A DNA stretch of 41,478 bases from an uncultured Candidatus Saccharibacteria bacterium (GTDB taxonomy: Bacteria > Patescibacteriota > Minisyncoccia > Phycocordibacterales > JACOZG01): the NCBI GenBank assembly GCA_964362425.1, contig CAYIEL010000001.1, positions 1 through 41,478 on the forward strand, read 5' to 3'. The notes under the pieces are model-generated. The model ran no database searches and was not told the DNA's origin. It worked only from the letters and a program-made list of their open reading frames with translations. A program made the translations under genes and the position numbers. This document shows, piece by piece, positions 4,507 through 30,590 of this stretch; within the stretch, counting starts at the first letter, position 1; each line of letters starts with the position of its first letter.

Positions 4507-4578
4507 GCTCTTGTAGTTCAACGGATAGAATGCCTCCCTCCGAAGGAGGTGATGTAGGTTCAATTCCTGCCAAGAGCA
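4507..4578 (+). tRNA. tRNA-Arg (anticodon CCG)
   Basis: Acceptor gctcttg/caagagc, anticodon stem cctcc/ggagg with loop ctCCGaa, T-loop ttcaatt. Confidence 0.88.
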
Positions 4579-4583
4579 TACTT

Positions 4584-5549
4584 ATGGAATCCTCTTTAGC
4601 TATCGCCGTAGTTGGGCCGACGGCCAGTGGTAAATCCGCGCTCGCCGTTCGGCTCGCGCGTCAATTCGGTGGGGAAATTATTTCCGCGGATTCGCGACAA
4701 GTTTATCGTGGGCTAGATATCGGAAGTGGAAAAATCACTAAACGGGAAATGCGTGGTATCCCCCATCACCTACTCGATGTGGCAAATCCAAAATCAGCTT
4801 TTTCGGCCGCGCAATATCAAAAATTAGCCGATCAAGCGCTTAAAGAAATCGGCAAGCGCGGTAAAGTGCCAATCATTTGCGGCGGTACCGGTTTTTACAT
4901 TGATGTCTTACGAGGCAAGGTGACTCTCCCACCGGTGCCACCGAATCGGGCCCTGCGGGCCAAACTCGAAAAACTAAGCACTGAGAAACTGGGTGAGAAG
5001 CTTAAACTTCTTGACCCCAAAAGATTTAAAAGTATTGATGCCAGAAACAGACCGAGACTGATCCGCGCTATAGAAATTGCTACGGCGCTAGGTCACGTGC
5101 CACCATTGGAATTAAATACAAAGGGTAGTCCTTGGGGGTCAAAGGACTACCCTTTAATCACCAGCAAGGACAGTCCTTGCTGGTTAAATTTGGGGATCAA
5201 GCTTGAGCCGGAAGAATTGCGGGAAAAAATTAATACTCGCCTGCGCTATCGCCTTCAGCATGGTTTAATCGCTGAAGTGAAAAAACTACACGCCAATGGT
5301 TTAAGCTGGAAACGACTCGATGCGCTCGGACTTGAGTATCGTTATATCGCGGAATTTTTACAAAAGCGCGAGAAATTCCTGCTCTTGCAGGAACAACTCG
5401 CCACCGCTATTTGGCATTACGCTAAAAGGCAAATGACTTGGTTTAAACGAGATAAAACTATTAAATGGGTGAAGGATTATCAAGAAGCGGAAAAACAAAC
5501 AGTGGCGTTTCTTAAGGTTCGACCTTTTTCTGTCAAGGTCGAACCTTGA
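4584..5549 (+). CDS. miaA: tRNA dimethylallyltransferase MiaA
   Basis: P-loop AVVGPTASGKSALA, then SADSRQVYRGLDIGSGK and CGGTGFY. The start was moved to the ATG at 4584 because the track ORF start (4530) lies inside tRNA-Arg. Confidence 0.9.
   Translation: MESSLAIAVVGPTASGKSALAVRLARQFGGEIISADSRQVYRGLDIGSGKITKREMRGIPHHLLDVANPKSAFSAAQYQKLADQALKEIGKRGKVPIICGGTGFYIDVLRGKVTLPPVPPNRALRAKLEKLSTEKLGEKLKLLDPKRFKSIDARNRPRLIRAIEIATALGHVPPLELNTKGSPWGSKDYPLITSKDSPCWLNLGIKLEPEELREKINTRLRYRLQHGLIAEVKKLHANGLSWKRLDALGLEYRYIAEFLQKREKFLLLQEQLATAIWHYAKRQMTWFKRDKTIKWVKDYQEAEKQTVAFLKVRPFSVKVEP
5120..5184. repeat. two adjacent perfect hairpin palindromes (AAGGAC/GTCCTT core) inside the miaA reading frame
   Basis: 14-bp stem 5120-5133/5142-5155 and 11-bp stem 5160-5170/5174-5184, in frame, encoding KGSPWGSKDYPLITSKDSPCW. 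Confidence 0.8.
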
Positions 5550-10840: not shown

Positions 10841-11422
10841 CTATTTGTCAATGATTTTAAAGAAGGCATCAATGTATTCCGCCCGGCGGTTCTGATACTT
10901 GAGATAATAAGCGTGCTCCCAGAGATCTAAACCAAGAATTGGCGTCTGCCCCGTCGAGATCGGCGTGTCTTGATTGGCGGTATTGATAATTGAAAAGGGG
11001 CTTGCCCCGAGGGATTTATCCCGAGCAGAATCGAGGGAAGTCGAGGGGTTTTTGATTAACCACGTCCATCCAGAACCGAAGCAAGCCAAAGCCGAATCTT
11101 TAAATTGTTTTTTGATTTCTTCTGTCAAGGCTAAGCCTTGACTTGGCGAGGCAGGCGCCAGAATGTTCCAAAAGAAAGTATGATTCCAATGTCCCCCGCC
11201 GTGGTTGCGTACTGCTTCACGAATCGCTTCCGGTACCGCGTTCAGATCACCGAGTAATTCTTCCAACTTTTTATTTTGCAATTCGGGAAACTTTTCCAAC
11301 ACCGCGTTCAACTTATCAACGTAAGTTTGGTGGTGCTTATCATGATGCAACCGCATCGTTTGCTCATCGATGTACGGCTCAAGCGCATCATAAGCGTAGG
11401 GTAATGGGGGTAGGGTGTGCAT
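10841..11422 (-). CDS. sod: Fe/Mn superoxide dismutase
   Basis: LPYAYDALEPYID, HHDKHHQTYV, WNHTFFW and DLWEHAYY; all four metal-ligand positions are present. Confidence 0.9.
   Translation of the reverse strand: MHTLPPLPYAYDALEPYIDEQTMRLHHDKHHQTYVDKLNAVLEKFPELQNKKLEELLGDLNAVPEAIREAVRNHGGGHWNHTFFWNILAPASPSQGLALTEEIKKQFKDSALACFGSGWTWLIKNPSTSLDSARDKSLGASPFSIINTANQDTPISTGQTPILGLDLWEHAYYLKYQNRRAEYIDAFFKIIDK
11123..11142. repeat. GTCAAGGCTaAGCCTTGAC palindrome embedded in the sod coding sequence
   Basis: 19-nt perfect palindrome 11124-11142 encoding SQGLALT on the minus strand. Confidence 0.7.
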
Positions 11423-13828: not shown

Positions 13829-14218
13829 TTATTTGTACAACCTCCAGAAAAACTCTTTTACCCTCCTAAAATCTTCTTCATCTGTCACGCCTAACCGATT
13901 GGACAATCTTCGATAATCAATTGTTCTTAATTGATGTAAGCAAACGTACATATCTCGTCCTTCTTGTTTTATTGGCACATACCAAGTCCCCTCTTTCTTT
14001 TGAGAAGTGGTCGGAGCAACGAGAAAAAATCCTCGAGATAATTTTTTTATTATCAACCCTGGCCGAGAAAATAATCTGCTCTTGCCATTCATCTCCGAAC
14101 CAATATTTTCACCAAAACTCACCCACCACAAATCACGTTCTTTAACCAACGGCGGATCGTTATCGACATTATGAAGTTTTTCTTTAAGCCCTATCCATTC
14201 CAAAAATCTTTTGAGCAT
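13829..14218 (-). CDS. PemK/MazF-family-like toxin protein with no adjacent antitoxin ORF
   Basis: 129 aa with core ERDLWWVSFGENIGSEMNGKSRLFSRPGLIIKK. It is a clear paralog of the 36779..37171 product. Confidence 0.6.
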   Translation of the reverse strand: MLKRFLEWIGLKEKLHNVDNDPPLVKERDLWWVSFGENIGSEMNGKSRLFSRPGLIIKKLSRGFFLVAPTTSQKKEGTWYVPIKQEGRDMYVCLHQLRTIDYRRLSNRLGVTDEEDFRRVKEFFWRLYK

Positions 14219-14250: not shown

Positions 14251-15372
14251 TTAAGCAATCCGCGCTCGTTTCAGAATCTCCGGTAAAATTTTGAGAACGT
14301 AATCCAGATCAGCTTTTTTGGTTTCGCGACTTAAGGTAAAACGCACGGCCGTTTGAGCATAAGTCGCGTCGTGACCCAAAGCGGTGATAACATGCGAGGC
14401 AGGTTTCTCTTGCGCCGAACAGGCGCTTCCGGACGCGGCGAGTACGCCACGCGCATCAAGATTCAAAACCATAAATTCACTATCTGCCTCCGCGAAACTA
14501 ACATTCACATTATTTGGTAAGCGGTTTGTCGCCGAGCCGTTGAGAGTTGTGCCGGGCAAAGCTAATAATTTTTTAATAAAATAATCGCGCAACTTGGCTA
14601 AACGCGCCGATTCTTTTTCCCGCGATCGCGTACACTTTTCAAGCGCTTGGGCGAAATTCGCCGCGGCCGACACATTTTCCGTGCCACTGCGTCGGCCGCG
14701 TTCCTGCCCACCGCCGTACAGAATCGGCTGCAGATTAATCCCCCGCCGCGCATAGAGACACCCACTACCCTTCGGTCCACCAACCTTGCTTGAATTTATC
14801 GTCATCAAATCAACTCCCAATCGCGCGGCATTAAGATCGAGAAATGGAGGAGCTTGGCAGGCGTCGGTGTGAAAGACACACCGTCGCCGAATTATTTTGG
14901 CAATTTCACGTAGCGGTTGGATAACGCCGATTTCGTTATTGGCATAACCGATCGAGACGAGAATTGTCTCCGGTCGCAGAGCTTGAGCTAATTCTTTCAG
15001 ATCAATCAGACCATCTGATTTAACCAGCAAATAAGTTACAGAGAAACCCTCATGCTCTAATTGCCGACACGATTCAAGAATCGAAGCATGCTCTATTTTT
15101 GTTGTAATGATATGAAATGTTAAACACCGAGTGTCGCACATTTTGTTTGACACTCGGTGTCGAGCTAATCCGAAAATCGCCAAATTATTCGCTTCCGTTC
15201 CGCCACTGGTAAAAATTATTTCATCACTGTGCGCGTTAAGCACCCGCGCAACCGTTTGTCGCGCTTCACTAAGTGTTTGCGCGGTACGCACGCCCGCACT
15301 ATGAATACTGGACGGATTATCGCTTCCAGCCGCCGCATCAAGGTTGATTAATCTCTTAGTTATCTTCGCCAT
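14251..15372 (-). CDS. cysteine desulfurase (NifS/IscS family) carrying an in-frame repeat insertion
   Basis: IIFTSGGTEANNLAI, the PLP-Lys context INSSKVGGPKGSG, and the catalytic Cys loop ASGSACSA. Confidence 0.9.
   Translation of the reverse strand: MAKITKRLINLDAAAGSDNPSSIHSAGVRTAQTLSEARQTVARVLNAHSDEIIFTSGGTEANNLAIFGLARHRVSNKMCDTRCLTFHIITTKIEHASILESCRQLEHEGFSVTYLLVKSDGLIDLKELAQALRPETILVSIGYANNEIGVIQPLREIAKIIRRRCVFHTDACQAPPFLDLNAARLGVDLMTINSSKVGGPKGSGCLYARRGINLQPILYGGGQERGRRSGTENVSAAANFAQALEKCTRSREKESARLAKLRDYFIKKLLALPGTTLNGSATNRLPNNVNVSFAEADSEFMVLNLDARGVLAASGSACSAQEKPASHVITALGHDATYAQTAVRFTLSRETKKADLDYVLKILPEILKRARIA
15118..15161. repeat. 44-nt palindromic repeat, copy A, inside the nifS-like ORF
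   Basis: tgttaaacaccgagtgtcgcacattttgtttgacactcggtgtc matches the reverse complement of 22075-22118 at 41 of 44 positions. 11-bp stem caccgagtgtc/gacactcggtg. Confidence 0.9.
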
Positions 15373-15378
15373 CTCCCC

Positions 15379-15428
15379 ATTCTAACGAAGCGCCAAAATT
15401 TTGCAAAAGTTCATTCTTTCGGTATAAT
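15379..15428. promoter_or_regulatory. back-to-back divergent promoters sharing one palindromic -35 hexamer, TTGCAA
   Basis: Plus strand: TTGCAA(15401-15406)-16-TATAAT(15423-15428). Minus strand: the same TTGCAA-16-TAGAAT (plus-strand 15379-15384), 6 nt from the nifS-like ATG. Confidence 0.5.
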
Positions 15429-15447
15429 TCGAAATAGCGCTTCGCTC

Positions 15448-15897
15448 ATGACTCTAACTCTCACTAATCTCTTAGTTATCGCTCTCGGACTGGTCATTAT
15501 TGGCTTAGCGGTTTGGTTGTGGCGAGTGGAGAGACGGATGGCCCGCCTCTTCACCGGTCGCGCCGGGCAGAATCTTGAAGAGTTGGCAATCAATTTTGGC
15601 AGTGAGCTCGCCGAGCTTGATCGTGCCCGGCAAGAAATTGAGAAGTTCCTCGTAGAGGCTAACCAACGTCTCTCGAGCTCGGTTCGCCATGTCCGCACTT
15701 TGCGCTACAATCCCTTCCCCGATCAAGGCGGAAATCAGAGTTTCTCCACCGCCTTACTCGACGAGAAGGGCAACGGCGTGATTATCACCGGCCTGCATGC
15801 CCGCGATACGATGCGCGTTTATGCCAAACCAATTCGCCAACGCGCCTCTGACTTTGAACTAACCATTGAAGAACAGGATGTGCTTAACCAAATATGA
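15448..15897 (+). CDS. DUF4446-family membrane protein
   Basis: N-terminal TM helix, then RYNPFPDQGGNQSFSTALLDEKGNGVIITGLHARDTMRVYAKP. The stop overlaps the infB ATG (ATGA). Confidence 0.7.
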   Translation: MTLTLTNLLVIALGLVIIGLAVWLWRVERRMARLFTGRAGQNLEELAINFGSELAELDRARQEIEKFLVEANQRLSSSVRHVRTLRYNPFPDQGGNQSFSTALLDEKGNGVIITGLHARDTMRVYAKPIRQRASDFELTIEEQDVLNQI

Positions 15898-17408
15898 AAA
15901 AGGTCACCCCTATCGCTCTGCAATCCCGACCGCCCGTGGTCGTCGTCGTTGGTCACATTGACCACGGCAAATCAACTCTGCTCGATTACATTCGAAAGAC
16001 GAGCGTCACCGAGACGGAAGCCGGCCCGCCTAGGCACGAGGCTGGCGGGATCACCCAGCGCGTTAGCGCTTATGAAGTGAAGCACCGTGACAAAACAATT
16101 ACCTTCCTCGACACACCCGGGCACGAAGCCTTCTCCAGTCTCCGCGAACGCAGTGCCAAGATTGCCGATCTCGCCATCGTCGTTGTCTCGGGCGAAGACG
16201 GAGTAAAGGCCCAAACACTGGAAGCTCTCAACGCCGTCACCGCCGCCAATCTTCCCTACCTCATTGCCATTAATAAGATTGATCGACCGACCGCCAATGT
16301 CGACCGCACGAAACAAAGCTTGACCGAAAATAGCATTCTGGTGGAAGGTTATGGCGGGACCATTCCCTGTCTCCCAATCTCGGCCAAAACCGGTGAGGGT
16401 GTGCCCGAACTGCTTGAACTTATTTTACTTATGGCCGAGATGGCTGAACTCACTACCAAGCCAACCTCTCCGGCTACCGGTTTCGTTCTGGAAGCCACGC
16501 GCCACCCGAAAACCGGTGTCATCACCACCCTGATTATCAAAGACGGAACTCTGCACTTGGGTGATTTCTTGGTGGTTGGTTCGATTGTCGGACGGATTAA
16601 AAAGTTGGAGAATTTCCGTGGTGAGAATGTCCCATCGCTTCAAGCTTCGAGTCCGGCGGTCGTCCTCGGTTTACCAGAAGTGCCGGAGGCCGGCGCTTGC
16701 TTCCGCCTCGCGCCAGACAAAAACACGGCCGAAGAAATGTCCCAAGAACCAGCCGAGGAAATAAGTGCAAGTGAAAATAGTTTAGAAAATCTAGCCGAAG
16801 GCATGACCCTTCTTCCGCTCATTCTCAAAGCCGATAACATTGGTTCGCTCGAAGCCCTTAAAAAAGAAACAGCCAAACTTAGTACCGAGACGGTTAAATT
16901 GAAAATCGTTCACACCGGTGTCGGTCAGATTACCGAGAATGACGTGAAGCTGGGTATGGGCACGCCGCCGGCGATAATTGTTGGCTTCAACGTTGTCGCC
17001 GAACGGGGGGCGATCGAGACCGCCGAGAAGTATGGAGTGACGATAAAAACTTTTGACATTATTTATCACTTGAGCGAGTGGCTCACAGAAGAAATTGCCC
17101 ACCGCACACCGGTCGTCGAAGTGGAAGAGACCATCGGTGAGATTAAGGTCCTTAAAATTTTCAGCCATGAGAAGAACCGCCAAGTGATTGGCGCGTCGGT
17201 GACGCAAGGTTATGTCGCTGATCGGCATCGGGTGCGAATTATGCGGCGCGGAGCGCCACTCGGTGAAGGCGATATCATTGAACTCAAACAGCAGAAACTC
17301 TCGGTCAGGAAGGTCGAGGAAGGCGCGCAATTCGGTGCGCTAGTGGAATCGAAAATTGCCATCGCCCCGGGTGATGCTCTGCTTATCTTCACACGCGGAC
17401 GACACTAA
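15894..17408 (+). CDS. infB: translation initiation factor IF-2 (short form)
   Basis: G domain VVVVGHIDHGKSTLLD, GGITQ, DTPGHEAF and NKID, followed by the C-terminal beta-barrel domains. Confidence 0.93.
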   Translation: MKKVTPIALQSRPPVVVVVGHIDHGKSTLLDYIRKTSVTETEAGPPRHEAGGITQRVSAYEVKHRDKTITFLDTPGHEAFSSLRERSAKIADLAIVVVSGEDGVKAQTLEALNAVTAANLPYLIAINKIDRPTANVDRTKQSLTENSILVEGYGGTIPCLPISAKTGEGVPELLELILLMAEMAELTTKPTSPATGFVLEATRHPKTGVITTLIIKDGTLHLGDFLVVGSIVGRIKKLENFRGENVPSLQASSPAVVLGLPEVPEAGACFRLAPDKNTAEEMSQEPAEEISASENSLENLAEGMTLLPLILKADNIGSLEALKKETAKLSTETVKLKIVHTGVGQITENDVKLGMGTPPAIIVGFNVVAERGAIETAEKYGVTIKTFDIIYHLSEWLTEEIAHRTPVVEVEETIGEIKVLKIFSHEKNRQVIGASVTQGYVADRHRVRIMRRGAPLGEGDIIELKQQKLSVRKVEEGAQFGALVESKIAIAPGDALLIFTRGRH

Positions 17409-17422
17409 GCTAGGATAAACCT

Positions 17423-17713
17423 ATGCGCCAGCATCATGAAGAAAGATTGACCTCCTCCGTCACTCGGCTGGCCGCCGAGTTTCTCGAACGACATCGCGGT
17501 ACGAGTTTAATCACCGTCAGCGGCGCGCAAATTGACAACAGTGGCAAATCGGTGACCATATTCATCACCGTTTACCCCGCGGAAGCCGAGAAACAGGCGT
17601 TGACCGAAACGAGGTTCTTGAGAAGCGAACTGCGCGACTTCCTCGACGCTCGTCTGCGCGGCAACTCACTGACCCACGTTGACTTCGCGCTCGACCAACG
17701 TCCCCTGGTATAA
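17423..17713 (+). CDS. rbfA: ribosome-binding factor A (tentative)
   Basis: 96 aa immediately downstream of infB, which is the conserved infB-rbfA order. The N-terminal pattern R..R....L..E is weakly RbfA-like. Confidence 0.55.
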   Translation: MRQHHEERLTSSVTRLAAEFLERHRGTSLITVSGAQIDNSGKSVTIFITVYPAEAEKQALTETRFLRSELRDFLDARLRGNSLTHVDFALDQRPLV

Positions 17714-17734
17714 TAAAAACAGAAATAAAAATTA

Positions 17735-17809
17735 GGTGCGGTGGCGAAGTGGTAACGCAGCGGTCTGCAAAACCGCAATACGCGGGTTCGATTCCCGCCC
17801 GCACCTCCA
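17735..17809 (+). tRNA. tRNA-Cys (anticodon GCA) with encoded CCA
   Basis: Acceptor ggtgcgg/ccgcacc, discriminator U, anticodon stem gcggt/accgc with loop ctGCAaa. Confidence 0.9.
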
Positions 17810-17810
17810 A

Positions 17811-17892
17811 GCCCGAGTGGCGGAATTGGTATACGCGCATGACTTAAAATCATGTCTCGCAAGGGATGTGGGTTCGACTCCCACCTCGGGCA
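17811..17892 (+). tRNA. tRNA-Leu (anticodon TAA)
   Basis: Acceptor gcccgag/ctcgggc, anticodon stem catga/tcatg with loop ctTAAaa, long variable arm. Confidence 0.9.
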
Positions 17893-17950
17893 TAAAATTT
17901 TGACCATTAACTAAATCGGCGCAATACTAATCGCAGAAAGGAGATCTTTA

Positions 17951-18187
17951 ATGCTGATGCAAATGCTTTACTGGATTTGGGCGTCAACCTTCATCTGGTT
18001 CATGGAACCAACTCCTGGAAAAATTGTCCCTTGGCGTTTCTGGACGCGACTTATTTTATGGGCGCCAGTGGTCTGGCTCGTCATCGTTCCGATTTGTAGT
18101 CTCTTCGCAATGTCATCTGTCGTCGGAATGTTTGTCTATGACGGCCTATTCCGATTCCACATTTTGCGAGAACGAGAAAAAGTTTAA
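17951..18187 (+). CDS. small hydrophobic protein, hypothetical
   Basis: 78 aa with 2-3 predicted TM helices, followed directly by a strong intrinsic terminator. Confidence 0.4.
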   Translation: MLMQMLYWIWASTFIWFMEPTPGKIVPWRFWTRLILWAPVVWLVIVPICSLFAMSSVVGMFVYDGLFRFHILREREKV

Positions 18188-18196
18188 GCGCCAACC

Positions 18197-18232
18197 CCCC
18201 CGTTAGACACGACTAACGGGGGTTTGTTTTTT
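18197..18232 (+). terminator. intrinsic terminator
   Basis: 10-bp stem cccccgttag/ctaacggggg with loop acacga, then tttgtttttt. Confidence 0.75.
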
Positions 18233-18249
18233 CGGGCTTGCTCTGCAAG

Positions 18250-18325
18250 TCCGCCCAGAGGGATTTGCATCCCCGACCGTCTGCTTAAGAGTCCGCCAGC
18301 CGGCGGATCTACTAACTGAGCTATT
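18250..18325 (-). pseudogene. degenerate tRNA-Lys-like sequence (tRNA ghost)
   Basis: Shares an identical 18-mer (cgaccgtctgcttaagag, 18274-18291 vs 18371-18388) and a 10-mer D-arm block with the adjacent tRNA-Lys. The anticodon-stem 5' half and the T-arm are replaced and no acceptor stem can be drawn. Confidence 0.5.
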
Positions 18326-18346
18326 TAACATCGATTGTAAATCCTA

Positions 18347-18419
18347 TCCGCCCGGCAGGGATCGAACCTGCGACCGTCTGCTTAAGAGGCAGCTGCTCTA
18401 CCAACTGAGCTACGGGCGG
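18347..18419 (-). tRNA. tRNA-Lys (anticodon CTT)
   Basis: The reverse complement folds: acceptor ccgcccg/cgggcgg, D-arm gctcagttggtagagc, anticodon loop ctCTTaa, T-arm gcagg-ttcgatc-cctgc. Confidence 0.85.
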
Positions 18420-18595
18420 GACCAACTAAAACAATAAATGAAAAAAAGGTTATTGTCTATTGCAAACTTGATATACCACAGTTTTCACGACCGTGATTTT
18501 TATAGTATGGGTGTAAAATTGAAACGGTCGTAAACATTTTACACCTAAGACAAAAAGTGGATGATAAAAAATTTCATGTTAAGATAGGAAGCTAG

Positions 18596-18669
18596 GCCGG
18601 AGTGGCGAAATTGGCACCATGCACTACGTTGAGTGCATGGCCGTGCACCTCGCATGGTGCACGGGACGC
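18596..18669 (+). pseudogene. truncated 5' copy of tRNA-Leu(UAG) (26 nt) interrupted by two related 9-bp hairpins
   Basis: 18596-18616 is identical to 18941-18961 (gccggagtggcgaaattggca) and gacgc recurs at 18665-18669. Between them lie the hairpins ccatgcact/agtgcatgg and ccgtgcacc/ggtgcacgg. Confidence 0.7.
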
Positions 18670-18680
18670 ATAAATTAAAT

Positions 18681-18932
18681 ATGTACTACATTTATATTCT
18701 CAGGTTAAACAACAATCAATTGTACACTGGTATAACCGACAACTTGAGGCGTCGCTTTAATGAACACAAAAATGGTGGGGTCATATCAACAAGCCATAAG
18801 CGACCAGTAAAATTGATATTTTATGAGACCTTCTTGCTGAAAAGTGATGCGACACGACGGGAAAAATACTTGAAAACAAGTAAAGGTAAAAGTACACTTA
18901 GGTTAATGTTGCGAGATTTCCTGGGCACCTAA
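18681..18932 (+). CDS. GIY-YIG nuclease superfamily protein (small, stand-alone)
   Basis: MYYIYILRLNNNQLYTGITDNLRRRFNEHKNG matches the GIY..YIG..R..H/E motif order. Start moved to the ATG at 18681. Confidence 0.8.
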   Translation: MYYIYILRLNNNQLYTGITDNLRRRFNEHKNGGVISTSHKRPVKLIFYETFLLKSDATRREKYLKTSKGKSTLRLMLRDFLGT

Positions 18933-18940
18933 AATATATT

Positions 18941-19024
18941 GCCGGAGTGGCGAAATTGGCAGACGCGTCAGCTTTAGGAGCTGATGGGAGCAATCCCTTG
19001 GAGGTTCGAGTCCTCTCTCCGGCA
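18941..19024 (+). tRNA. tRNA-Leu (anticodon TAG)
   Basis: Acceptor gccggag/ctccggc, anticodon stem tcagc/gctga with loop ttTAGga, long variable arm, T-arm ggagg-ttcgagt-cctc. Confidence 0.9.
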
Positions 19025-19045
19025 TCACTTGCATTTTTTTAGGGT

Positions 19046-19078
19046 ATAAAAAACCAGCGCTCATAGGAGAACGCTGGT
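19046..19078 (-). terminator. intrinsic terminator of the 19135..20556 gene
   Basis: The minus strand reads accagcg-ttctcctatga-cgctggt followed by ttttttat. Confidence 0.65.
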
Positions 19079-19134
19079 CGTAGTTGGGTTAAACAAACCC
19101 AGATTGTGGTAGTTACGGAGGAGTAAGAGGATCT

Positions 19135-20556
19135 TCACCCCCCTTCTTCCTCTTCAGCTGATGGCGCTGGATTTTCTCCCAGCAAGACGTCTGGCAAATT
19201 AACTAGAGTAGCTTGACCTCCGCCGCCGGCGTTGAGAACTCTGATGCCACCTTCACCGATTGACTCGGCAATACGCATCCTAGTGCCCGCACCGTCGGGA
19301 ATTGCTGCAATTTCCCGCATACCCTGAGCTTTCCCAAGATATGTCGACGCAGTCAAAGCCTTACGACCTATTGCCTTTGCTATATCCCTCCTTGCATCTA
19401 TCTCGGCCTGTCTTCTTTGTTGATTGGCCGTAAAGATACTGTCGATAGACGCCTGTAAGCCAGGATTCTGCAAACTCACACTCACAAGCGCTAGCCACAC
19501 AATTTCTTGGCCATAAGTGGGAATGGCTACTCTTCCATTCACTCCCTTAATTATTTCGGCCAGTTTGCCAGCCACTGCCTCCTTGTTCCCAAGAATCTTG
19601 TCATAATCCAAACCACCAATCCATGGCCGGATTTCATCGCGCAATTCCTTCATAATGGCTCCGAGCCACTCACCCGCCGAAGAAAGACCAGCGGTCCTGA
19701 ATAGGGTTTTCTGGGGATTGCGCGTTCGAGTTTCCATCACGAACTCTAACTTGAGTTGGATTTTTTCCTGTAGCTCTTCTTGATCTGTCCCCTCTCCTAT
19801 CTTTAATGTTCCCTTACCTGTTTCGACATTTTCCACAACAAGACCGTATAACGGGTAGGAGAAGTAGAGAGAACTCACTTCTTCTTCACGTGGGGTCATA
19901 ATAACCTCGCTAGACGGCTTGCCATCAGATGAGGTTTCCTTTTGGGCATACTTTATCCATCGGAATCGATAGTGGAAAACTCTAAACGGTGGCAAACCTA
20001 CCCAGACAACACCAAACAGTTTTTCGAACCATCCATAAGAATTAGCCCGCTTTAGCCGTTTGCAAAAGTCTGGTTTTAAGATAAACCAACTTGGCGATAC
20101 GATCACAGCACCGTCTTCATTCACCATCTGCGGATGTACCGGGACCTGATCATACTCGATTTTGATCCGCTCCACGAAAACAAGATCACTTTCTTCTAGT
20201 TCCTTGCGCACTTCCAGTAACTTGTTTTCATTGAATTCCCCAACTTCTTCACGGTGGCGTTCCGCCCAAGTCCAAAGTTCGCTAATCATTGGTTGTAGAT
20301 CAGCCGGGGATGTTTCGTCGCCAAGAAAACCCTTGAAGATATCAAAGTCGTCTGGATCGATGATATGATTTTCAACCGTCATTACATATCTTCGACAGTC
20401 CTCTCCTCTCATGAAGGCTTTGATCTCTCCTTCGGTTCTGAAAGTAACAAGGGAATCTTGTTTAGCCATTTCCGATAGCGCCCAACGCAAGGTCAAGTAG
20501 ATCACCCACAACGCCCCCACCCACAGTAAAAACCCAATCAAACTCGCAAAATTCAT
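19135..20556 (-). CDS. membrane-anchored protein with possible SPFH/band-7-like core (tentative)
   Basis: 473 aa with an N-terminal TM helix. The central FGVVWVGLPPFRVFHYRF...VENVETGKG...EFVMETRTRNPQ and an Ala/Arg-rich C-terminal helix region recall SPFH proteins. Judged by eye only. Confidence 0.3.
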   Translation of the reverse strand: MNFASLIGFLLWVGALWVIYLTLRWALSEMAKQDSLVTFRTEGEIKAFMRGEDCRRYVMTVENHIIDPDDFDIFKGFLGDETSPADLQPMISELWTWAERHREEVGEFNENKLLEVRKELEESDLVFVERIKIEYDQVPVHPQMVNEDGAVIVSPSWFILKPDFCKRLKRANSYGWFEKLFGVVWVGLPPFRVFHYRFRWIKYAQKETSSDGKPSSEVIMTPREEEVSSLYFSYPLYGLVVENVETGKGTLKIGEGTDQEELQEKIQLKLEFVMETRTRNPQKTLFRTAGLSSAGEWLGAIMKELRDEIRPWIGGLDYDKILGNKEAVAGKLAEIIKGVNGRVAIPTYGQEIVWLALVSVSLQNPGLQASIDSIFTANQQRRQAEIDARRDIAKAIGRKALTASTYLGKAQGMREIAAIPDGAGTRMRIAESIGEGGIRVLNAGGGGQATLVNLPDVLLGENPAPSAEEEEGG

Positions 20557-20651
20557 GGCAAACCCTTTCTTTTAGAACTTTTTCGATGTCAAGGTACAAA
20601 CCAAACCGTAACAATACTATCATTTTGGATAGAATTAGTCAAGGGTTTTGT

Positions 20652-20679
20652 TTGACAAAAGAATTTGGTATGATATAAT
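20652..20679 (+). promoter_or_regulatory. near-consensus sigma70 promoter TTGACA-16-(TGa)TATAAT
   Basis: -35 at 20652-20657 and -10 at 20674-20679, upstream of the 20735 gene. Confidence 0.6.
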
Positions 20680-20734
20680 CACGAGCAGTGGTAGTTTGAA
20701 GAAAAAATGAAATTGGTCTTTGAAAGGACAAACT

Positions 20735-21079
20735 ATGACTTGGTGGATGTGGGTGTTAGTTGTTTTCATCTATCTAGTGGTCGCTGATTGGGCTGAGGCG
20801 GTCTCAACTCAACTGAAAAATCGGCGATGGATACTCTGGTTTTTGCTTCATGTTCTCATTGCTCCAATCTGGATCCCACGGGTTATAATCAACGGTCTCC
20901 AGAAACTAGCAGAGTGGAAAAAACAGGGAAAAGAAACTGGAAGGATCAGTATGGAAACACGATTGGATGAAATTGAGAAGCGCCTCGTGGAATACGAAAG
21001 TGGAATCGAGTATCTAACCAAACAAGTTACTGAGTTAGTCGAAGGAACTGACCCAGTAACCAAAAAGGAAGGAGACTAG
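20735..21079 (+). CDS. small membrane protein with C-terminal coiled-coil, hypothetical
   Basis: ATG at 20735 preceded by AAAGGA. Two TM helices, then METRLDEIEKRLVEYESGIEYLTKQVTELVEG. Confidence 0.5.
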   Translation: MTWWMWVLVVFIYLVVADWAEAVSTQLKNRRWILWFLLHVLIAPIWIPRVIINGLQKLAEWKKQGKETGRISMETRLDEIEKRLVEYESGIEYLTKQVTELVEGTDPVTKKEGD

Positions 21080-21080
21080 A

Positions 21081-21998
21081 ATGGGGATTGTAAAAACAAT
21101 AAGGGAATGGCGGTGGCCGTTGGTAGTACTGGCGGGATTAAGCATTCTGTTCGGGCTGCTCCCTCAAACATTACCAACGTTTGAATTCCTAAAGAAGGTC
21201 ACGGTCTTAGAAGTTGTTGTGGTTTTTGTTTCGTTGATAGCTGTGTTGACTGTCGTTGGTTTATTTTTTCGCCGAGCGAATCTCAACAAGGCAAAGTCGA
21301 AAAGACCAGTGTCGGCTAACCCCTCAGTGCCAGGAGCAACTGAAAAAACAAAAACAGACTGGACACCATGGGCATCTTCGGCGTTAGTAATCGTTAGTTT
21401 TACCCTACTGTTCATTCTCATCGCCATTTTTTTCCCGGCGCTCTGGGAATGGTTCCTCGGTCAGGGAAAAGTATTTGGGCTATTGGTCGTAACCATATTG
21501 GTTGTGGCTCTAGCAACCAAATACAAACCAGTTTGGTGGTTAGTGGTGATAATGGGAACTGTTCTTCTGTTTAGTTGGACGAGTTTTCCACCCAATCCAC
21601 TTGATTGGCGACAATCAAGTCTAGCCAAGGCCAACCAAGCAACAACAGAGAGATGGGCCACCGCGAGCGGAGTGAGCGACCACTGGGAGTTGTGTTGGGC
21701 TAAAATCCCAAGCTCCACGGCACTTGACCCAAAAGTAAGGGAGAAATGCAACCCAGTCGTATCTTTCGATTTCCAAACTTCGGGGAAACCTAGAAGATTG
21801 GAGGCGCAGTACGAATCAGCGGGGATTTTGCGTCGTACTTTTCTAGAATGGGACTCGGAAACAGACGGCTCGTGTTGGCAAGAAGATCCGCCAGCGAAAG
21901 GTCGCTTCCAGCTCAAGGATATCGGAGGAGCATATCGTGGTTGGTGCGTAAATTCAGATACTAAAGAGGAAGGAATCTTGTGGTTAGTTAAAAAATAA
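21081..21998 (+). CDS. multi-pass membrane protein with Cys/Trp-rich C-terminal soluble domain, hypothetical
   Basis: 305 aa. AGGAG lies 8 nt upstream and the start is 1 nt after the previous stop. About 5 TM helices. Confidence 0.5.
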   Translation: MGIVKTIREWRWPLVVLAGLSILFGLLPQTLPTFEFLKKVTVLEVVVVFVSLIAVLTVVGLFFRRANLNKAKSKRPVSANPSVPGATEKTKTDWTPWASSALVIVSFTLLFILIAIFFPALWEWFLGQGKVFGLLVVTILVVALATKYKPVWWLVVIMGTVLLFSWTSFPPNPLDWRQSSLAKANQATTERWATASGVSDHWELCWAKIPSSTALDPKVREKCNPVVSFDFQTSGKPRRLEAQYESAGILRRTFLEWDSETDGSCWQEDPPAKGRFQLKDIGGAYRGWCVNSDTKEEGILWLVKK

Positions 21999-22026
21999 GA
22001 TTCCGCAGAAAGGAGAACATCAAAAA

Positions 22027-22054
22027 AGGCGGGATGCACTTCGGTGCCCCGCCT
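22027..22054. terminator. bidirectional terminator hairpin with UUCG loop
   Basis: aggcggg-atgcacttcggtgc-cccgcct, flanked by aaaaaa and ttttcttt. Confidence 0.7.
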
Positions 22055-22074
22055 TTTCTTTATGCCCTCTCCCC

Positions 22075-22118
22075 AACACCGAGTGTCTCACAAAATGTGC
22101 GACACTCGGTGTTTAACA
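22075..22118. repeat. 44-nt palindromic repeat, copy B (intergenic, overlapping the stop of a pilin-like gene)
   Basis: aacaccgagtgtctcacaaaatgtgcgacactcggtgtttaaca is an inverted copy of 15118-15161. Confidence 0.9.
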
Positions 22119-22364
22119 AGTAATCCCGGGAATTGTCTTGCAGATGACATGCATAATGCCGTAGAAGGAAATCATTATGAACATCCCGACCACTCCCCAG
22201 AGGATATGTTGTTGCCCCGTCTTGCGTGCTTCTTCATTGTCGGCATTACGAATGAACTCGAGCACGCCGTATAGGAAATAGATCAGGGCAAGGGCGAAAA
22301 GAAAATAGATAATCGGATCAACAATCGCTGTTTTGATCTTCTCGAGGAGTGGTATTGGGGGCAT
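22113..22364 (-). CDS. T4SS-pilin-like (TrbC/VirB2-like) small membrane protein, paralog 1
   Basis: 83 aa with a TM-polar loop-TM layout: LIYFLYGVLEFIRNADNEEARKTGQQHILWGVVGMFIMISFYG. Confidence 0.6.
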   Translation of the reverse strand: MPPIPLLEKIKTAIVDPIIYFLFALALIYFLYGVLEFIRNADNEEARKTGQQHILWGVVGMFIMISFYGIMHVICKTIPGITC

Positions 22365-25293: not shown

Positions 25294-25814
25294 GAGAACA
25301 TTAAACCATAATGATGATCGCCGGCCGGGAAATCATTGATAAACTTGAATCCCGCCTCGGCGAAAATCTTTTTCGCCTCGGCGGGCGGCAGAACCTGCTC
25401 CGAAGTCGGCCCCAAACCACCGAATGACCCGCTCCAATCTACTAGCGCGACCTTACCATCTACTTTCAAAATTCGTTTCGCCTCACAAACTAAAGTATAT
25501 TTGGCAGAAGTCTGGAAAAGAAGATTGGCAATCAAGACGAAGTCAACGGATCCGTCGGCAAGCGTTGAACCGTGCGCGTGCTCAAGATCACCGCGTAAAA
25601 CTTCGATATTGCGAATATGCTTTTCCTTCGCCTCGTGCGCGAGGCGGGCGAGAATTTCTTTTTGAATATCAATGGCGTAGGCCCGCCCATCATGCCCGAC
25701 AGCTTGAGCCAGCGCTAGAGCATAAGCCCCGCTACCCGCACCAAAATCGGCCACGGTCATTCCTTCATTAAGGTGGAAGTGAGTGACAACTTCTTGTGGT
25801 TTCGAGAAGGGCAT
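25290..25814 (-). CDS. class I SAM-dependent methyltransferase
   Basis: Motif I VADFGAGSGAYALALA, then AIDIQ and VLIANLL. The stop overlaps the next start (ATGA). Confidence 0.75.
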   Translation of the reverse strand: MPFSKPQEVVTHFHLNEGMTVADFGAGSGAYALALAQAVGHDGRAYAIDIQKEILARLAHEAKEKHIRNIEVLRGDLEHAHGSTLADGSVDFVLIANLLFQTSAKYTLVCEAKRILKVDGKVALVDWSGSFGGLGPTSEQVLPPAEAKKIFAEAGFKFINDFPAGDHHYGLMFS

Positions 25815-25830
25815 AATATCTGCCCCTAGA

Positions 25831-28320
25831 TTATACCACCGGTGACAAACAGGTTAAAGAGGCAAGGGTGTCGCCGGGGTGGAGCTTCATGATGCGGACG
25901 CCTTGGGTCTGGCGGCCAAGAGTCGAGATTTCGGCGAGCGTCGTTCGAATCACTTGGCCGTGTTTGGAGATCGTAATAATTTCCGTGGCCGTCTCATCGA
26001 GCACTTGAGCGTTGATCAGAGGTCCGGTTTTATCCGTCACTTGGGCTGTCTTAATCCCCGATCCCCCTCGGCCCTGCACTTTGTATTCTTTCAAAAGCGT
26101 TTTCTTACCGAAGCCATTTTCGCTGACGACTAAGAATTGGCCGGCCTTTTGCTCGGGACCAATCGCCCCGAGACCAACGACCACATCGGTCTTCGTTTTT
26201 AATTTAATTGCCCGGACACCGCCGGCCGCCCGGCCCATTTCGCGAATTGAATTTATTTTGAAGCGAATCGCTTGACCGGCGCGGGTAGCAATAATTGCCT
26301 CATCACCCGAGTGAACGACCGCTACCGACAAGAGTTCGTCGCCCGAATGAAGTTTAATCGCAATGATCCCGCTCCGGCGCACATCACTCATGTCAGACAC
26401 GGCGACGCGTTTGGCCACACCACCGCGCGTCACCATAAGCAGGGAGGCATTATTTGATTTCCCACGTGGAACAGCGAGAACAGAAGTAACTTTTTCATTG
26501 TCAGCCAACGACAAGAAATTCATAATCGACTTGCCTTTGGTCGCTCGTTTACCTTCTGGGATATCGTACATCTTGATCTGGTAAACTTTCCCGCGATCGG
26601 TGAAGAAAAGTAGATCGTCATGCGTCTTAGCCGTTAAGAAAATAGTGACGAAATCTTCTTCTTTAGTATCTAGATCAATCACGCCGATACCGCCGCGCTT
26701 CTGCGAACGATACTCGACCGGATCAGTACGTTTGATGTAACCACCGCGGGTTAGAACAAGCACCATTGAGGTATCCGGCACTAGATCTTCCGTTCGAATC
26801 TCTTTGACACCGTGGGAAATAATTTTCGTTCGGCGAGCATCGCCGTATTTATCTTTAATCGCCACGAATTCTTGCTTGATTACCGCTTTCACTTTGCGCG
26901 GATCAGCGAGTAGCGCTTGCAATTCTTTAATCAGAACTTGTTTCTCTTTAAGTTCATCTTCAATCGCTTGCCGTTCGAGGCCGGCGAGTTTCTGAAGTTT
27001 CATTTCGAGAATCGCCGTCGCTTGCAATTCGGAAAAATCAAAACGTTTAACCAAATTCTTATGAGCCGTGGCGGCATCAGCTGATTGCTTAATCGTCTTG
27101 ATCACCGCATCGATTTGATCAATCGCCTTCACTAAACCGAGCAAGATATGCGCTCGCTCCTCCGCTCGCGCCAAGTCGAAACGGGTTCGCTTCAAGACAA
27201 TCACTTCGCGATGGGCTAAGAATTCTTGGAGAATCGCCTTGAGCGACAAGAGTTTCGGCACGCCATCAACGAGCGCCAACATGTTGTAATGGAACATCGT
27301 CTCAAGCTCGGTATTTTTATAAAGAGCGTTGAGAATTTTCTCGGGGTAAACTCCGCCTTTCAATTCAATCACTACGCGCGTGTCAGCGAGTGTCGTTGAT
27401 TCATCACGAATATCTTTAATCCCTTCAATCTTTTTCTCATGCACCAGATCAGCCATTCGAACGATAAGCTCAGCTTTATTCACTTGATACGGGACAGAGG
27501 TAATAACGATTTGGTGGCTCCCCGCTCCGCCACGAGGCGAGCCCGCTTTCGTCTCGACAATTTCCGCTTCGCCTCGGACCAGCACTCCGCCGCGGCCGGA
27601 GGCCGCGGCGTGATGGATGTCCGCTTGATTGAAAATCAGTCCGCCGGTCGGGAAGTCCGGTCCTTTGATGAAACGGAAAAGATCTTCCGGCGTGGCATCG
27701 TTATTGTCAACTAAAAAAATCAACGCCTCCATCACTTCGGTCAAGTTGTGCGGCGGGATTTTCGTCGCCATGCCGACAGCGATACCGATCGAACCCATCA
27801 ATAAGAGATTAGGAATGGCCGAGGGCAAGAGCGTTGGCTCTTTCCGCGAACCATCGTAGTTCGGCACGAAATCCACCGTCTCTTTTTCAATATCGTGCAG
27901 AAGTTCACCGGCGAGCGGCGCCATCTTGACCTCGGTATAACGCATGGCCGCCGGCGGGTCGCCATCGATCGAACCGAAGTTACCTTGACCAATAACTAAG
28001 GGGTAACGTAGGGAGAAGTCTTGCGCGAGCCGAGCGAGCGCTTCATAGCAAGCCACATCACCGTGGGGATGGAATTTACCAAGCACTTCACCAACCACCA
28101 GCGCCGATTTACGAAATCTAGAACTCGAACCTAATCCCAACTCGTGCATAGCGTAGAGAATCCGGCGGTGCACTGGCTTCAAACCATCACGAACGTCAGG
28201 TAAAGCGCGCGAGACAATCACCGACATCGCGTAGTCGAGATAGGAAGTCCGCATCTCGGACGAGATATCAGTGGGAATTATCCTACTTGTATTTTTATTT
28301 TCCGGTAAACTATCGGGCAT
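25831..28320 (-). CDS. gyrA: DNA gyrase subunit A
   Basis: [17 protein letters not shown], active-site AAMRYTE, and C-terminal beta-pinwheel repeats. Confidence 0.95.
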
Positions 28321-30567: not shown

Positions 30568-30590
30568 ATGTCAAGGTTCGACCTTGACAT
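30568..30590. repeat. 23-nt perfect palindrome atgtcaaggttcgaccttgacat (GTCAAGG family)
   Basis: Lies between the candidate RNA terminator and the pth stop codon. Confidence 0.8.

Follow-up and report, generated by a model that had tools for sequence, protein, structure and literature searches.

A short palindrome in frame in a Patescibacteria cysteine desulfurase and its probable place among REPIN-like elements

Two copies of a palindrome in one contig

The DNA discussed here, which we call the window, is the entire 41,478-bp contig of a Patescibacteria metagenome-assembled genome (MAG) from Hainich groundwater. Two of its genes, one for a cysteine desulfurase of the NifS/IscS kind and one for a small pilin-like protein, share a short palindrome, which we name F1 and which is probably a repetitive extragenic palindrome (REP) laid out as a doublet. 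Copy A lies inside the reading frame of the desulfurase gene and copy B at the very end of the pilin-like gene, the two being in inverted orientation (Table 1).

A repeat search paired 15118-15160 with 22076-22118 as inverted segments of 43 nt that are 95% complementary (41 of 43 positions identical); they make up the longest inverted repeat of the window. The arms of both copies are ACACCGAGTGTC/GACACTCGGTGT, and the 11-mer CACCGAGTGTC occurs exactly four times in the window, as the four arms of copies A and B. With at most one mismatch it has six matches for 0.48 expected, a number that none of 100 shuffled sequences reached. Both copies fold into a 13-bp outer stem followed by an inner stem of 3-4 bp, with energies of -24 to -28 kcal/mol and z-scores of -5.6 to -7.9.

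Copy A amounts to exactly 15 in-frame codons of the desulfurase (CGA CAC CGA GTG TCA AAC AAA ATG TGC GAC ACT CGG TGT TTA ACA), that is, to the peptide RHRVSNKMCDTRCLT at residues 71-85. Every column found invariant in 64 homologues is conserved in the host protein, K196 and C318 among them. In an AlphaFold2 model built with the homologue alignment (mean predicted local distance difference test score, pLDDT, of 90.8), the insert extends a helix at 58-76, then continues as coil at 77-86 before a strand at 87-91; its pLDDT is 78-82, against about 95 in the flanks on either side. The closest solved structures, those of Archaeoglobus fulgidus IscS2 (4R5F/4EB5), show a gap of seven to eight residues opposite the insert. 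These features are consistent with a tolerated surface loop, which would presumably be translated and be neutral, or nearly so, for the enzyme. A PemK/MazF-type toxin gene stands directly downstream of the desulfurase, at 13829-14218; in a relative, locus L016, a PemK_toxin gene is also present, adjoining the pilin genes.

At copy B, the terminal TGTTAA provides the final cysteine codon (TGT) and the TAA stop of the pilin-like open reading frame (ORF), the assignment of which to T4SS_pilin (PF18895) is weak (23.7 bits, below the cut-off of 26.6, E 5e-5). On the plus strand, a spurious ORF (22044..22274) runs over copy B and reads HRVSHKMCDTRCLTS. Because a separate, canonical terminator-like hairpin is found at 22022-22059, copy B is not itself the terminator: it is simply an extragenic copy, situated in a 3' untranslated region. 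Neither copy is followed by a T-run, no direct repeat or target-site duplication was seen flanking either of them, and an Rfam search of the window returned tRNAs only, with no known RNA family at the repeats.

We can therefore retain most of what the original prediction had read at this locus: a palindrome present in a coding and in a non-coding copy, established by the search, the shuffles and the folds; a copy A that keeps the frame of the desulfurase; a copy B that codes for nothing but the last codon and stop of the pilin-like gene, although a spurious plus-strand ORF spells the same peptide there; and a linker some eight residues longer than in IscS, in agreement with the seven to eight residues found relative to the A. 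fulgidus enzyme. Its delimitation has to be amended, copy A being best taken as 45 nt (15118-15162) instead of 44 (15118-15161).

Distribution, frames and pairing of F1

Among 60 aligned NifS homologues, the linker that holds the insert is variable: many sequences carry RHRVSxGHSVS there and others nothing. At this position, site 1, the window and loci L016, L018, L019, L144 and L146 are filled, and L143, L039, L139 and L145 are empty, L143 being the closest orthologue, at 72% identity; the alignment of orthologues called for by the original prediction thus reveals presence and absence at one and the same site. The copies in L016, L018 and L146 have nucleotide-identical arms in a shorter, 33-nt form, AGACACCGAGTGTCC-NNN-GGACACTCGGTGTCT, the window holding the 45-nt form where these relatives hold the 33-nt one. 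The same NifS sequence, insert included, was recovered from three further independent assemblies, and the orthologous copies were drawn from NCBI, ENA, JGI and Logan sources. A second loop of NifS (site 2), just before FHTDACQ, is filled in L018, L039, L139, L144, L145, L146 and L019, and not in the window: L018, L039 and L146 have the 45-nt long form there, L144, L145 and L139 variants of it, and L019 a flipped copy. As orthologues carry related inserts at the same loop, we may understand site 1 as a hotspot, or as an old insertion that was continually renewed, rather than as a one-off event. Other peptides recur at site 2, namely KSYKLEA.., KLKAD.Y and TPPLL..EG (homologues P0004, P0009, P0014, P0015, P0023-27, P0029 and P0058); they look like translations of further palindrome families, one of which is centred on AAGCTT, and another of which is the CCCCTCCCC/GGGGAGGGG hairpin, present upstream of F1 in L088, L098, L116, L123 and L141.

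The orthologous copies also allow the pairing of the arms to be followed. The test was confined to the alignment of orthologous sites, a covariation test across all doublet families having been dropped as circular, since these doublets had been selected for pairing in the first place. At site 1 of five orthologous loci, 97.3% of the stem cells are paired and four of the 15 pairs change on both sides, values matched by only 6-8 of 500 shuffles. L019 displays a compensated A>C / T>G change. In L144, four coordinated changes result in GACAT-CGA-ATGTC, and the long-form copy that this locus has at site 2 shares these GACAT..ATGTC arms; in L145 it is the centre that is compensated, as CGG:CCG.

Beyond NifS, a pattern scan found exact F1 arms in at least 118 metagenome loci, and in species-representative genomes a scan gave 15 matches, among them Patescibacteria and two Chloroflexi MAGs. 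The consensus is (A/G)ACACCGAGTGTC...GACACTCGGTGT(C/T); the flanking signature (A/G)A...T(C/T) accompanies about 90% of the matches listed, and the ten or so that lack it are probably chance hairpins. F1 is present in intergenic DNA and also within genes; there its arms appear in each of the three frames and in either orientation, giving RHRVS/RHSVS, DTEC/DTRC or TPSV/TLGV. All ten host ORFs that were tested proved to be real, conserved genes, in which the insert has domains on either side: MnmA, RpoB, RecJ, TsaD, MsrA-MsrB, QueA, YjeF, a Mur ligase, a pseudouridine synthase and a GT4 glycosyltransferase. The common lengths are 33 and 45 nt. The 33-nt form, as found in L016, is open in all six frames; in the long form, two of the six are interrupted by stops.

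The internal layout of the element deserves attention. Each arm is a mini-palindrome in itself, GACAC-CGA-GTGTC (13 nt), so that F1 has to be seen as an inverted doublet of a 13-nt unit, which is the layout of the REP doublets forming hairpins known as REPINs. The arm has indeed been seen alone, as a singlet hairpin (L009, 2381-2409), as well as in doublets, which fold at -24 to -35 kcal/mol across the copies tested. Subfamilies differ by their loop: 3 nt; 9 nt (TGGGAGYCC, with conserved flanks); 10 nt (with A-run/T-run flanks); and 13-14 nt, the latter being the long form of the window, which ends in GGTGTTTAACA. Related loci hold several F1 copies, or copies of a second family, F2, described below. 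The 33-nt hairpin also forms tandem arrays (L076, 2403-2535; L067, 255-346; L132, 1180-1270), which repeat every 53, 57 and 64 nt; the contigs concerned have a G+C content of 61-67%, and since such values are unusual for Patescibacteria, F1 probably lives in other phyla as well.

Transposase genes and further hairpin families

In relatives of the window, hairpins of these families stand next to genes resembling those of the REP-associated tyrosine transposases (RAYT). When a 76-aa C-terminal RAYT fragment was used as query it yielded fragments only, and a full gene was reached through the neighbouring methyltransferase gene: in L147/L148, a 231-aa gene lies between gyrA/DUF4190 and a methyltransferase gene (82% identical to that of the window). 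The segment 8728-10001 of L147 contains this gene and DUF4190, and the corresponding place in the window, 25814-25831, contains neither, gyrA and the methyltransferase gene being 16 nt apart. The 231-aa protein matches PF01797 (Y1_Tnp) with 42.6 bits for a cut-off of 23. Its gene is flanked by members of F2, a family that retains the scaffold of F1 with different arms, TGTCAAGGT-CGA-ACCTTGACA: TTGTCAAGGTTCGACCTTGACAA is found 31 nt upstream of the gene and TGTCAAGGTCGAACCTTGACA across its stop codon.

Homologues were then sought by tblastn of the L147 protein against all the locus DNA that had been collected. In L009/L085 (a Hainich H41 Patescibacteria MAG), an F1 singlet precedes the RAYT-like gene and an F1 doublet abuts its stop codon. 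L059 has two such genes, the first (L059a) with an F1 doublet 12 nt upstream of its start, the second (L059b) with a variant, GGACAT-CGG-ATGTCC, inside its 3' end. L067 gives a weak match (E 0.05), to an N-terminal fragment which lies at the edge of the contig and close to two F1 doublets. A clustering of the genes neighbouring F1 also groups RAYT-like genes of L059, L085, L099 and L141. The proteins, of 218-238 aa, keep the HUH (PNHFH) and tyrosine (AYIHxNP) motifs and have FQ/FE where a W motif is usual; five of them exceed the PF01797 cut-off of 23, with 25-49 bits, and four of those found beside F1 are among the five. The GACAT..ATGTC variant noted above in L144 is that found beside the second gene of L059, which fits the view that distinct REP types go with distinct RAYTs, as they do in described REP systems. 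Copies of F1 or F2 flanking a single Y1/HUH transposase gene, and sometimes overlapping its 3' end, reproduce in these relatives the arrangement known as the REPtron (PMC3733652, PMC6006769).

F2 is present in the window too, with at least three copies in 41 kb for two of F1. The kinship of the two families is best seen by setting the F2 copy of L034, CCGA-GGT-CGA-ACC-TCTGAGAGCCCGA-GGT-TCG-ACC-TCTAAGGCATTT, against its F1 counterpart, CCGA-CAC-CGA-GTG-TCTGGGAGTCCGA-CAC-TCG-GTG-TCTAAAGCATTT. The 21-nt core of the intergenic F2 singlet at 30568-30590 is identical to that of the REP upstream of the RAYT gene of L147. More generally, the X5-N3-X5' doublet layout is realized by 63 distinct arm pairs in the collected loci, against none in shuffled sequence.

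Different lineages hold different families at the same sites. One loop of MiaA holds a GTAG-type hairpin in the window and in L016, F2 in L143 and F1 in L146; in the window, this hairpin (5120-5155) and its neighbour reach -41 kcal/mol together. After the stop of the last pilin gene, the four sequences compared, the window included, all have a REP doublet, and three families are represented: F1 in the window and L019, an F2-like element in L016, and GAAGT-CCG-ACTTC in L146. Because the families differ between lineages, the MiaA and pilin sites are to be seen as hotspots or replacement sites, not as single ancient insertions; such reuse may reflect a target preference or survivorship in a few permissive loops, both of which fit the data.

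Table 1. Position of the hairpins and of the genes that carry them (window coordinates unless a locus is named).
Feature	Position	Strand	Description
Cysteine desulfurase (NifS/IscS-like), 373 aa	14251..15372	-	PF00266, 203 bits; class-V aminotransferase; ORF intact
Copy A, F1 long form	15118..15162	-	45 nt; outer stem ACACCGAGTGTC/GACACTCGGTGT, inner stem degraded
Copy B, F1 long form	22075..22118	-	3' untranslated region of pilin-like gene
Pilin-like gene, 83 aa	22113..22364	-	Stop codon inside copy B
Terminator-like hairpin with A-run and T-run flanks	22022..22059	.	Separate from copy B, between convergent genes
F2 doublet AAGGT-TCG-ACCTT ... AAGGT-CGA-ACCTT	5512..5549	+	Last 12 codons and stop of miaA (KVRPFSVKVEP*)
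Two adjacent hairpins	5120..5186	+	In frame in miaA (4530-5549); first carries GTAG, GGGTAGTCCTT/AAGGACTACCC
F2-like singlet GTCAAGG-CTAAG-CCTTGAC	11117..11145	-	In frame in superoxide dismutase gene, between N and C domains
F2 singlet ATGTCAAGGTTCGACCTTGACAT	30568..30590	.	Intergenic, between convergent S1-domain gene and pth
REP doublets after the pilin stop	L016 4723-4790; L146 4798-4830; L019 3960-3994; window 22075-22118		

Relatives have an in-frame F2 doublet where the superoxide dismutase gene of the window (10841-11422) has its F2-like singlet. Beside that singlet, about 17 conserved residues (LEKNFGSVD...) are missing from the enzyme, which may be a REP-associated deletion. A 13-aa insert of the same protein (10997-11050) was considered as a further palindrome and discarded, with no clear palindrome in it. 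Elsewhere in the window, next to intact tRNA genes, lie a partial copy (18250-18323, 74% identical) of a region overlapping tRNA-Lys and another (18596-18622, 70-81% identical) of the 5' end of tRNA-Leu; these fragments may have been left by duplication, or by integration events at tRNA genes.

Origin of the hairpins and its meaning

Taken as a whole, these observations make it probable that F1 is a REPIN-like REP doublet, non-autonomous and copied in trans by a tyrosine transposase of the Y1/HUH family, of RAYT type. Such an enzyme would recognize the folded hairpin in single-stranded DNA and copy it elsewhere; that F1 would be moved in this way is a proposal well supported by the adjacency of hairpins and RAYT-like genes. 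Insertions falling in permissive surface loops would then survive selection, because the arms are free of stop codons in the six frames and the common forms measure 33 or 45 nt, and they would be translated as 11-15 extra residues, copy A being one such case. Intragenic REPs, mostly dimers, have been described in housekeeping genes of Proteobacteria, Verrucomicrobia and Rickettsia (Di Nocera et al., 2013; PMC3733652). F1 has in common with REPs and REPINs a short palindromic unit, mostly in inverted doublets that fold into one longer hairpin, and copies placed downstream of genes or in frame in housekeeping genes, tRNA-modification enzymes included. It departs from them in being very short (33 or 45 nt), in having arms that are palindromic around a CGA/TCG centre, in the FQ/FE of the RAYT-like proteins encoded beside it, in residing in ultra-small Patescibacteria genomes, and in having neither GT[AG]G nor CGTC, the tags by which most REPs described so far are defined, although a different hairpin of the window, in miaA, does carry GTAG.

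The lack of this tag weighs against the proposed origin, as do several other points. Neither a target-site duplication nor a clear target motif has been found. In the 41-kb window, tblastn with the L147 protein found no RAYT homologue, so that the link with the transposase rests on related contigs, and the sole NCBIfam match of that protein, NF047646 (REP-associated tyrosine transposase), scores 48.7 bits, below the cut-off of 80. Recent mobility is presumptive, since the presence and absence described above are between relatives and not between near-identical genomes that differ by one copy. Also, REPIN-RAYT systems are commonly viewed as vertically inherited and specific to a lineage; one and the same F1 arm in contigs of 34-67% G+C would be unexpected if this were strictly so. 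Finally, the repeated occupancy of the same sites could mean that the hairpin is selected for a function.

This last point leads to another explanation, which we deem unlikely while giving it more weight than the ones that follow: the hairpin would act in cis and be retained at given places for its usefulness, as an RNA or DNA structure to which a conserved factor binds, for instance in mRNA stability or processing, in replication or in nucleoid organization; it might then be a co-opted REP. It would account for both NifS loops, the MiaA loop and the post-pilin site being occupied in lineages whose NifS proteins are only 64-72% identical, for an arm that is nucleotide-identical in many lineages and for pairing preserved through compensatory changes, and the subfamily with A-run and T-run flanks does resemble bidirectional terminators. 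However, depending on the lineage these same sites hold families of unrelated sequence (F1, F2, the GTAG type or GAAGT-CCG-ACTTC), which is not what one would expect of a function tied to a given sequence at the site; the close relative L143 is empty, the host genes are functionally unrelated, and the copies of the window lack a T-run, copy B being followed by a separate terminator. It is hardly credible that the peptide belongs to the desulfurase by ancestry or by selection for function, the DNA palindrome being incidental: several orthologues do carry RHRVSxGHSVS-like peptides at the same position, but the identity holds for nucleotides and not for residues alone, the same DNA is found in other frames of other proteins and in non-coding DNA, the closest orthologue and the solved IscS structures lack the insert, and the window and its relatives hold forms of different length at the same site. 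The combination that would have favoured this idea according to the original prediction, two copies only and the same peptide in desulfurases of unrelated lineages, is not what was found: F1 is spread over the loci counted above, in three frames and in unrelated hosts.

Turning to known elements, a miniature derivative of a DDE-type insertion sequence, or an end fragment of an IS200/IS605 element, is quite improbable as a substitute for a RAYT-dependent REP. Miniature inverted-repeat transposable elements (MITEs) inserted in frame, such as the QMITEs of Coxiella (PMC5896051), are likewise small non-autonomous repeats that can add residues to proteins; but they possess terminal inverted repeats around a core, target-site duplications and DDE transposases, none of which was seen for F1. 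F1 is a single hairpin throughout, and a total of 33-45 nt leaves no room for such repeats and a core. L062 has, 2 kb from an F1 copy, an IS200-like tnpA that is not flanked by F1 hairpins, in contrast with the RAYT-like genes, which are directly flanked, and copies A and B have no target-site duplication. As for an artefact of assembly or sequencing, or a chance palindrome, its likelihood is practically negligible: some matches listed, about ten, do look like chance hairpins, but NifS with its insert comes from independent assemblies and from several data sources, the reading frame is preserved, and the shuffles never attained the observed count. Other candidates were set aside. DNA uptake sequences are short motifs present about once per kb, often as single copies, and F1 is too sparse for this, with four arms in 41 kb, all paired in hairpins. 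An intrinsic terminator does not suit the window copies, for the want of a T-run and the separate terminator at 22022-22059. Integron attC sites, CRISPR repeats, CIRCE-like operators and parS do not fit in sequence or layout; the tandem copies of L076 repeat their spacers too.

The REPIN-like reading also has to be compared with the Rickettsia palindromic elements (RPEs), to which the original prediction had likened F1 as a mobile kind of palindrome inserted in frame in an essential enzyme. The likeness is supported by at least ten unrelated host genes and by intergenic copies: RPEs, too, are repeated palindromes found in frame in essential genes, where they add a surface peptide, and in non-coding DNA. 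F1 is distinct in its length of 33-45 nt (RPE-1 being far longer, roughly 100-150 bp), in the absence of CGTC, in its host clade and in having no sequence relationship with them. No transposase is known for RPEs. The short RPE-4 and RPE-6 are tagged by CGTC (PMC3733652). A literature search for the motif and for palindromes of the candidate phyla radiation (CPR) gave nothing relevant, and no paper was found on F1 or linking RAYT to Patescibacteria; RAYT genes were reported to favour larger genomes in a survey that did not comprise the CPR (PMC6006769). While intragenic REPs and REPINs are a known kind of element, the F1 family and its Patescibacteria host group therefore seem unreported.

A wider proposal, made much more tentatively, is that REP-RAYT systems may be active and diverse in the ultra-small CPR/Patescibacteria, steadily supplying in-frame insertions to loops of essential proteins, with families serially replacing one another in permissive loops and between genes, and the core ACACCGAGTGTC shared across lineages of 34-67% G+C. 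If this were true, the sharing of the core would point, against the usual view of vertical and lineage-bound inheritance, to horizontal spread of the REP-RAYT pair or to a conserved constraint of recognition. Were F1 to depend on RAYT, REPIN-RAYT systems would exist in strongly reduced genomes, about 1 Mb in size, in which little selfish DNA is expected. A practical consequence concerns annotation, as odd short peptides of CPR proteins (RHRVS..GHSVS, DTEC..DTRC, TPSV..TLGV, KGSTFFCQGRTL) and many small spurious ORFs can be explained as translated REP hairpins, and indels in the alignments of CPR markers (RpoB, TsaD, MnmA, NifS) may have arisen by REP insertion and would then not be signatures of a lineage. 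F1 copies would also serve as natural experiments that tell which protein loops tolerate 11-15 extra residues. With several REP families reusing one site, the way in which RAYT-type enzymes choose their targets is open to direct testing.

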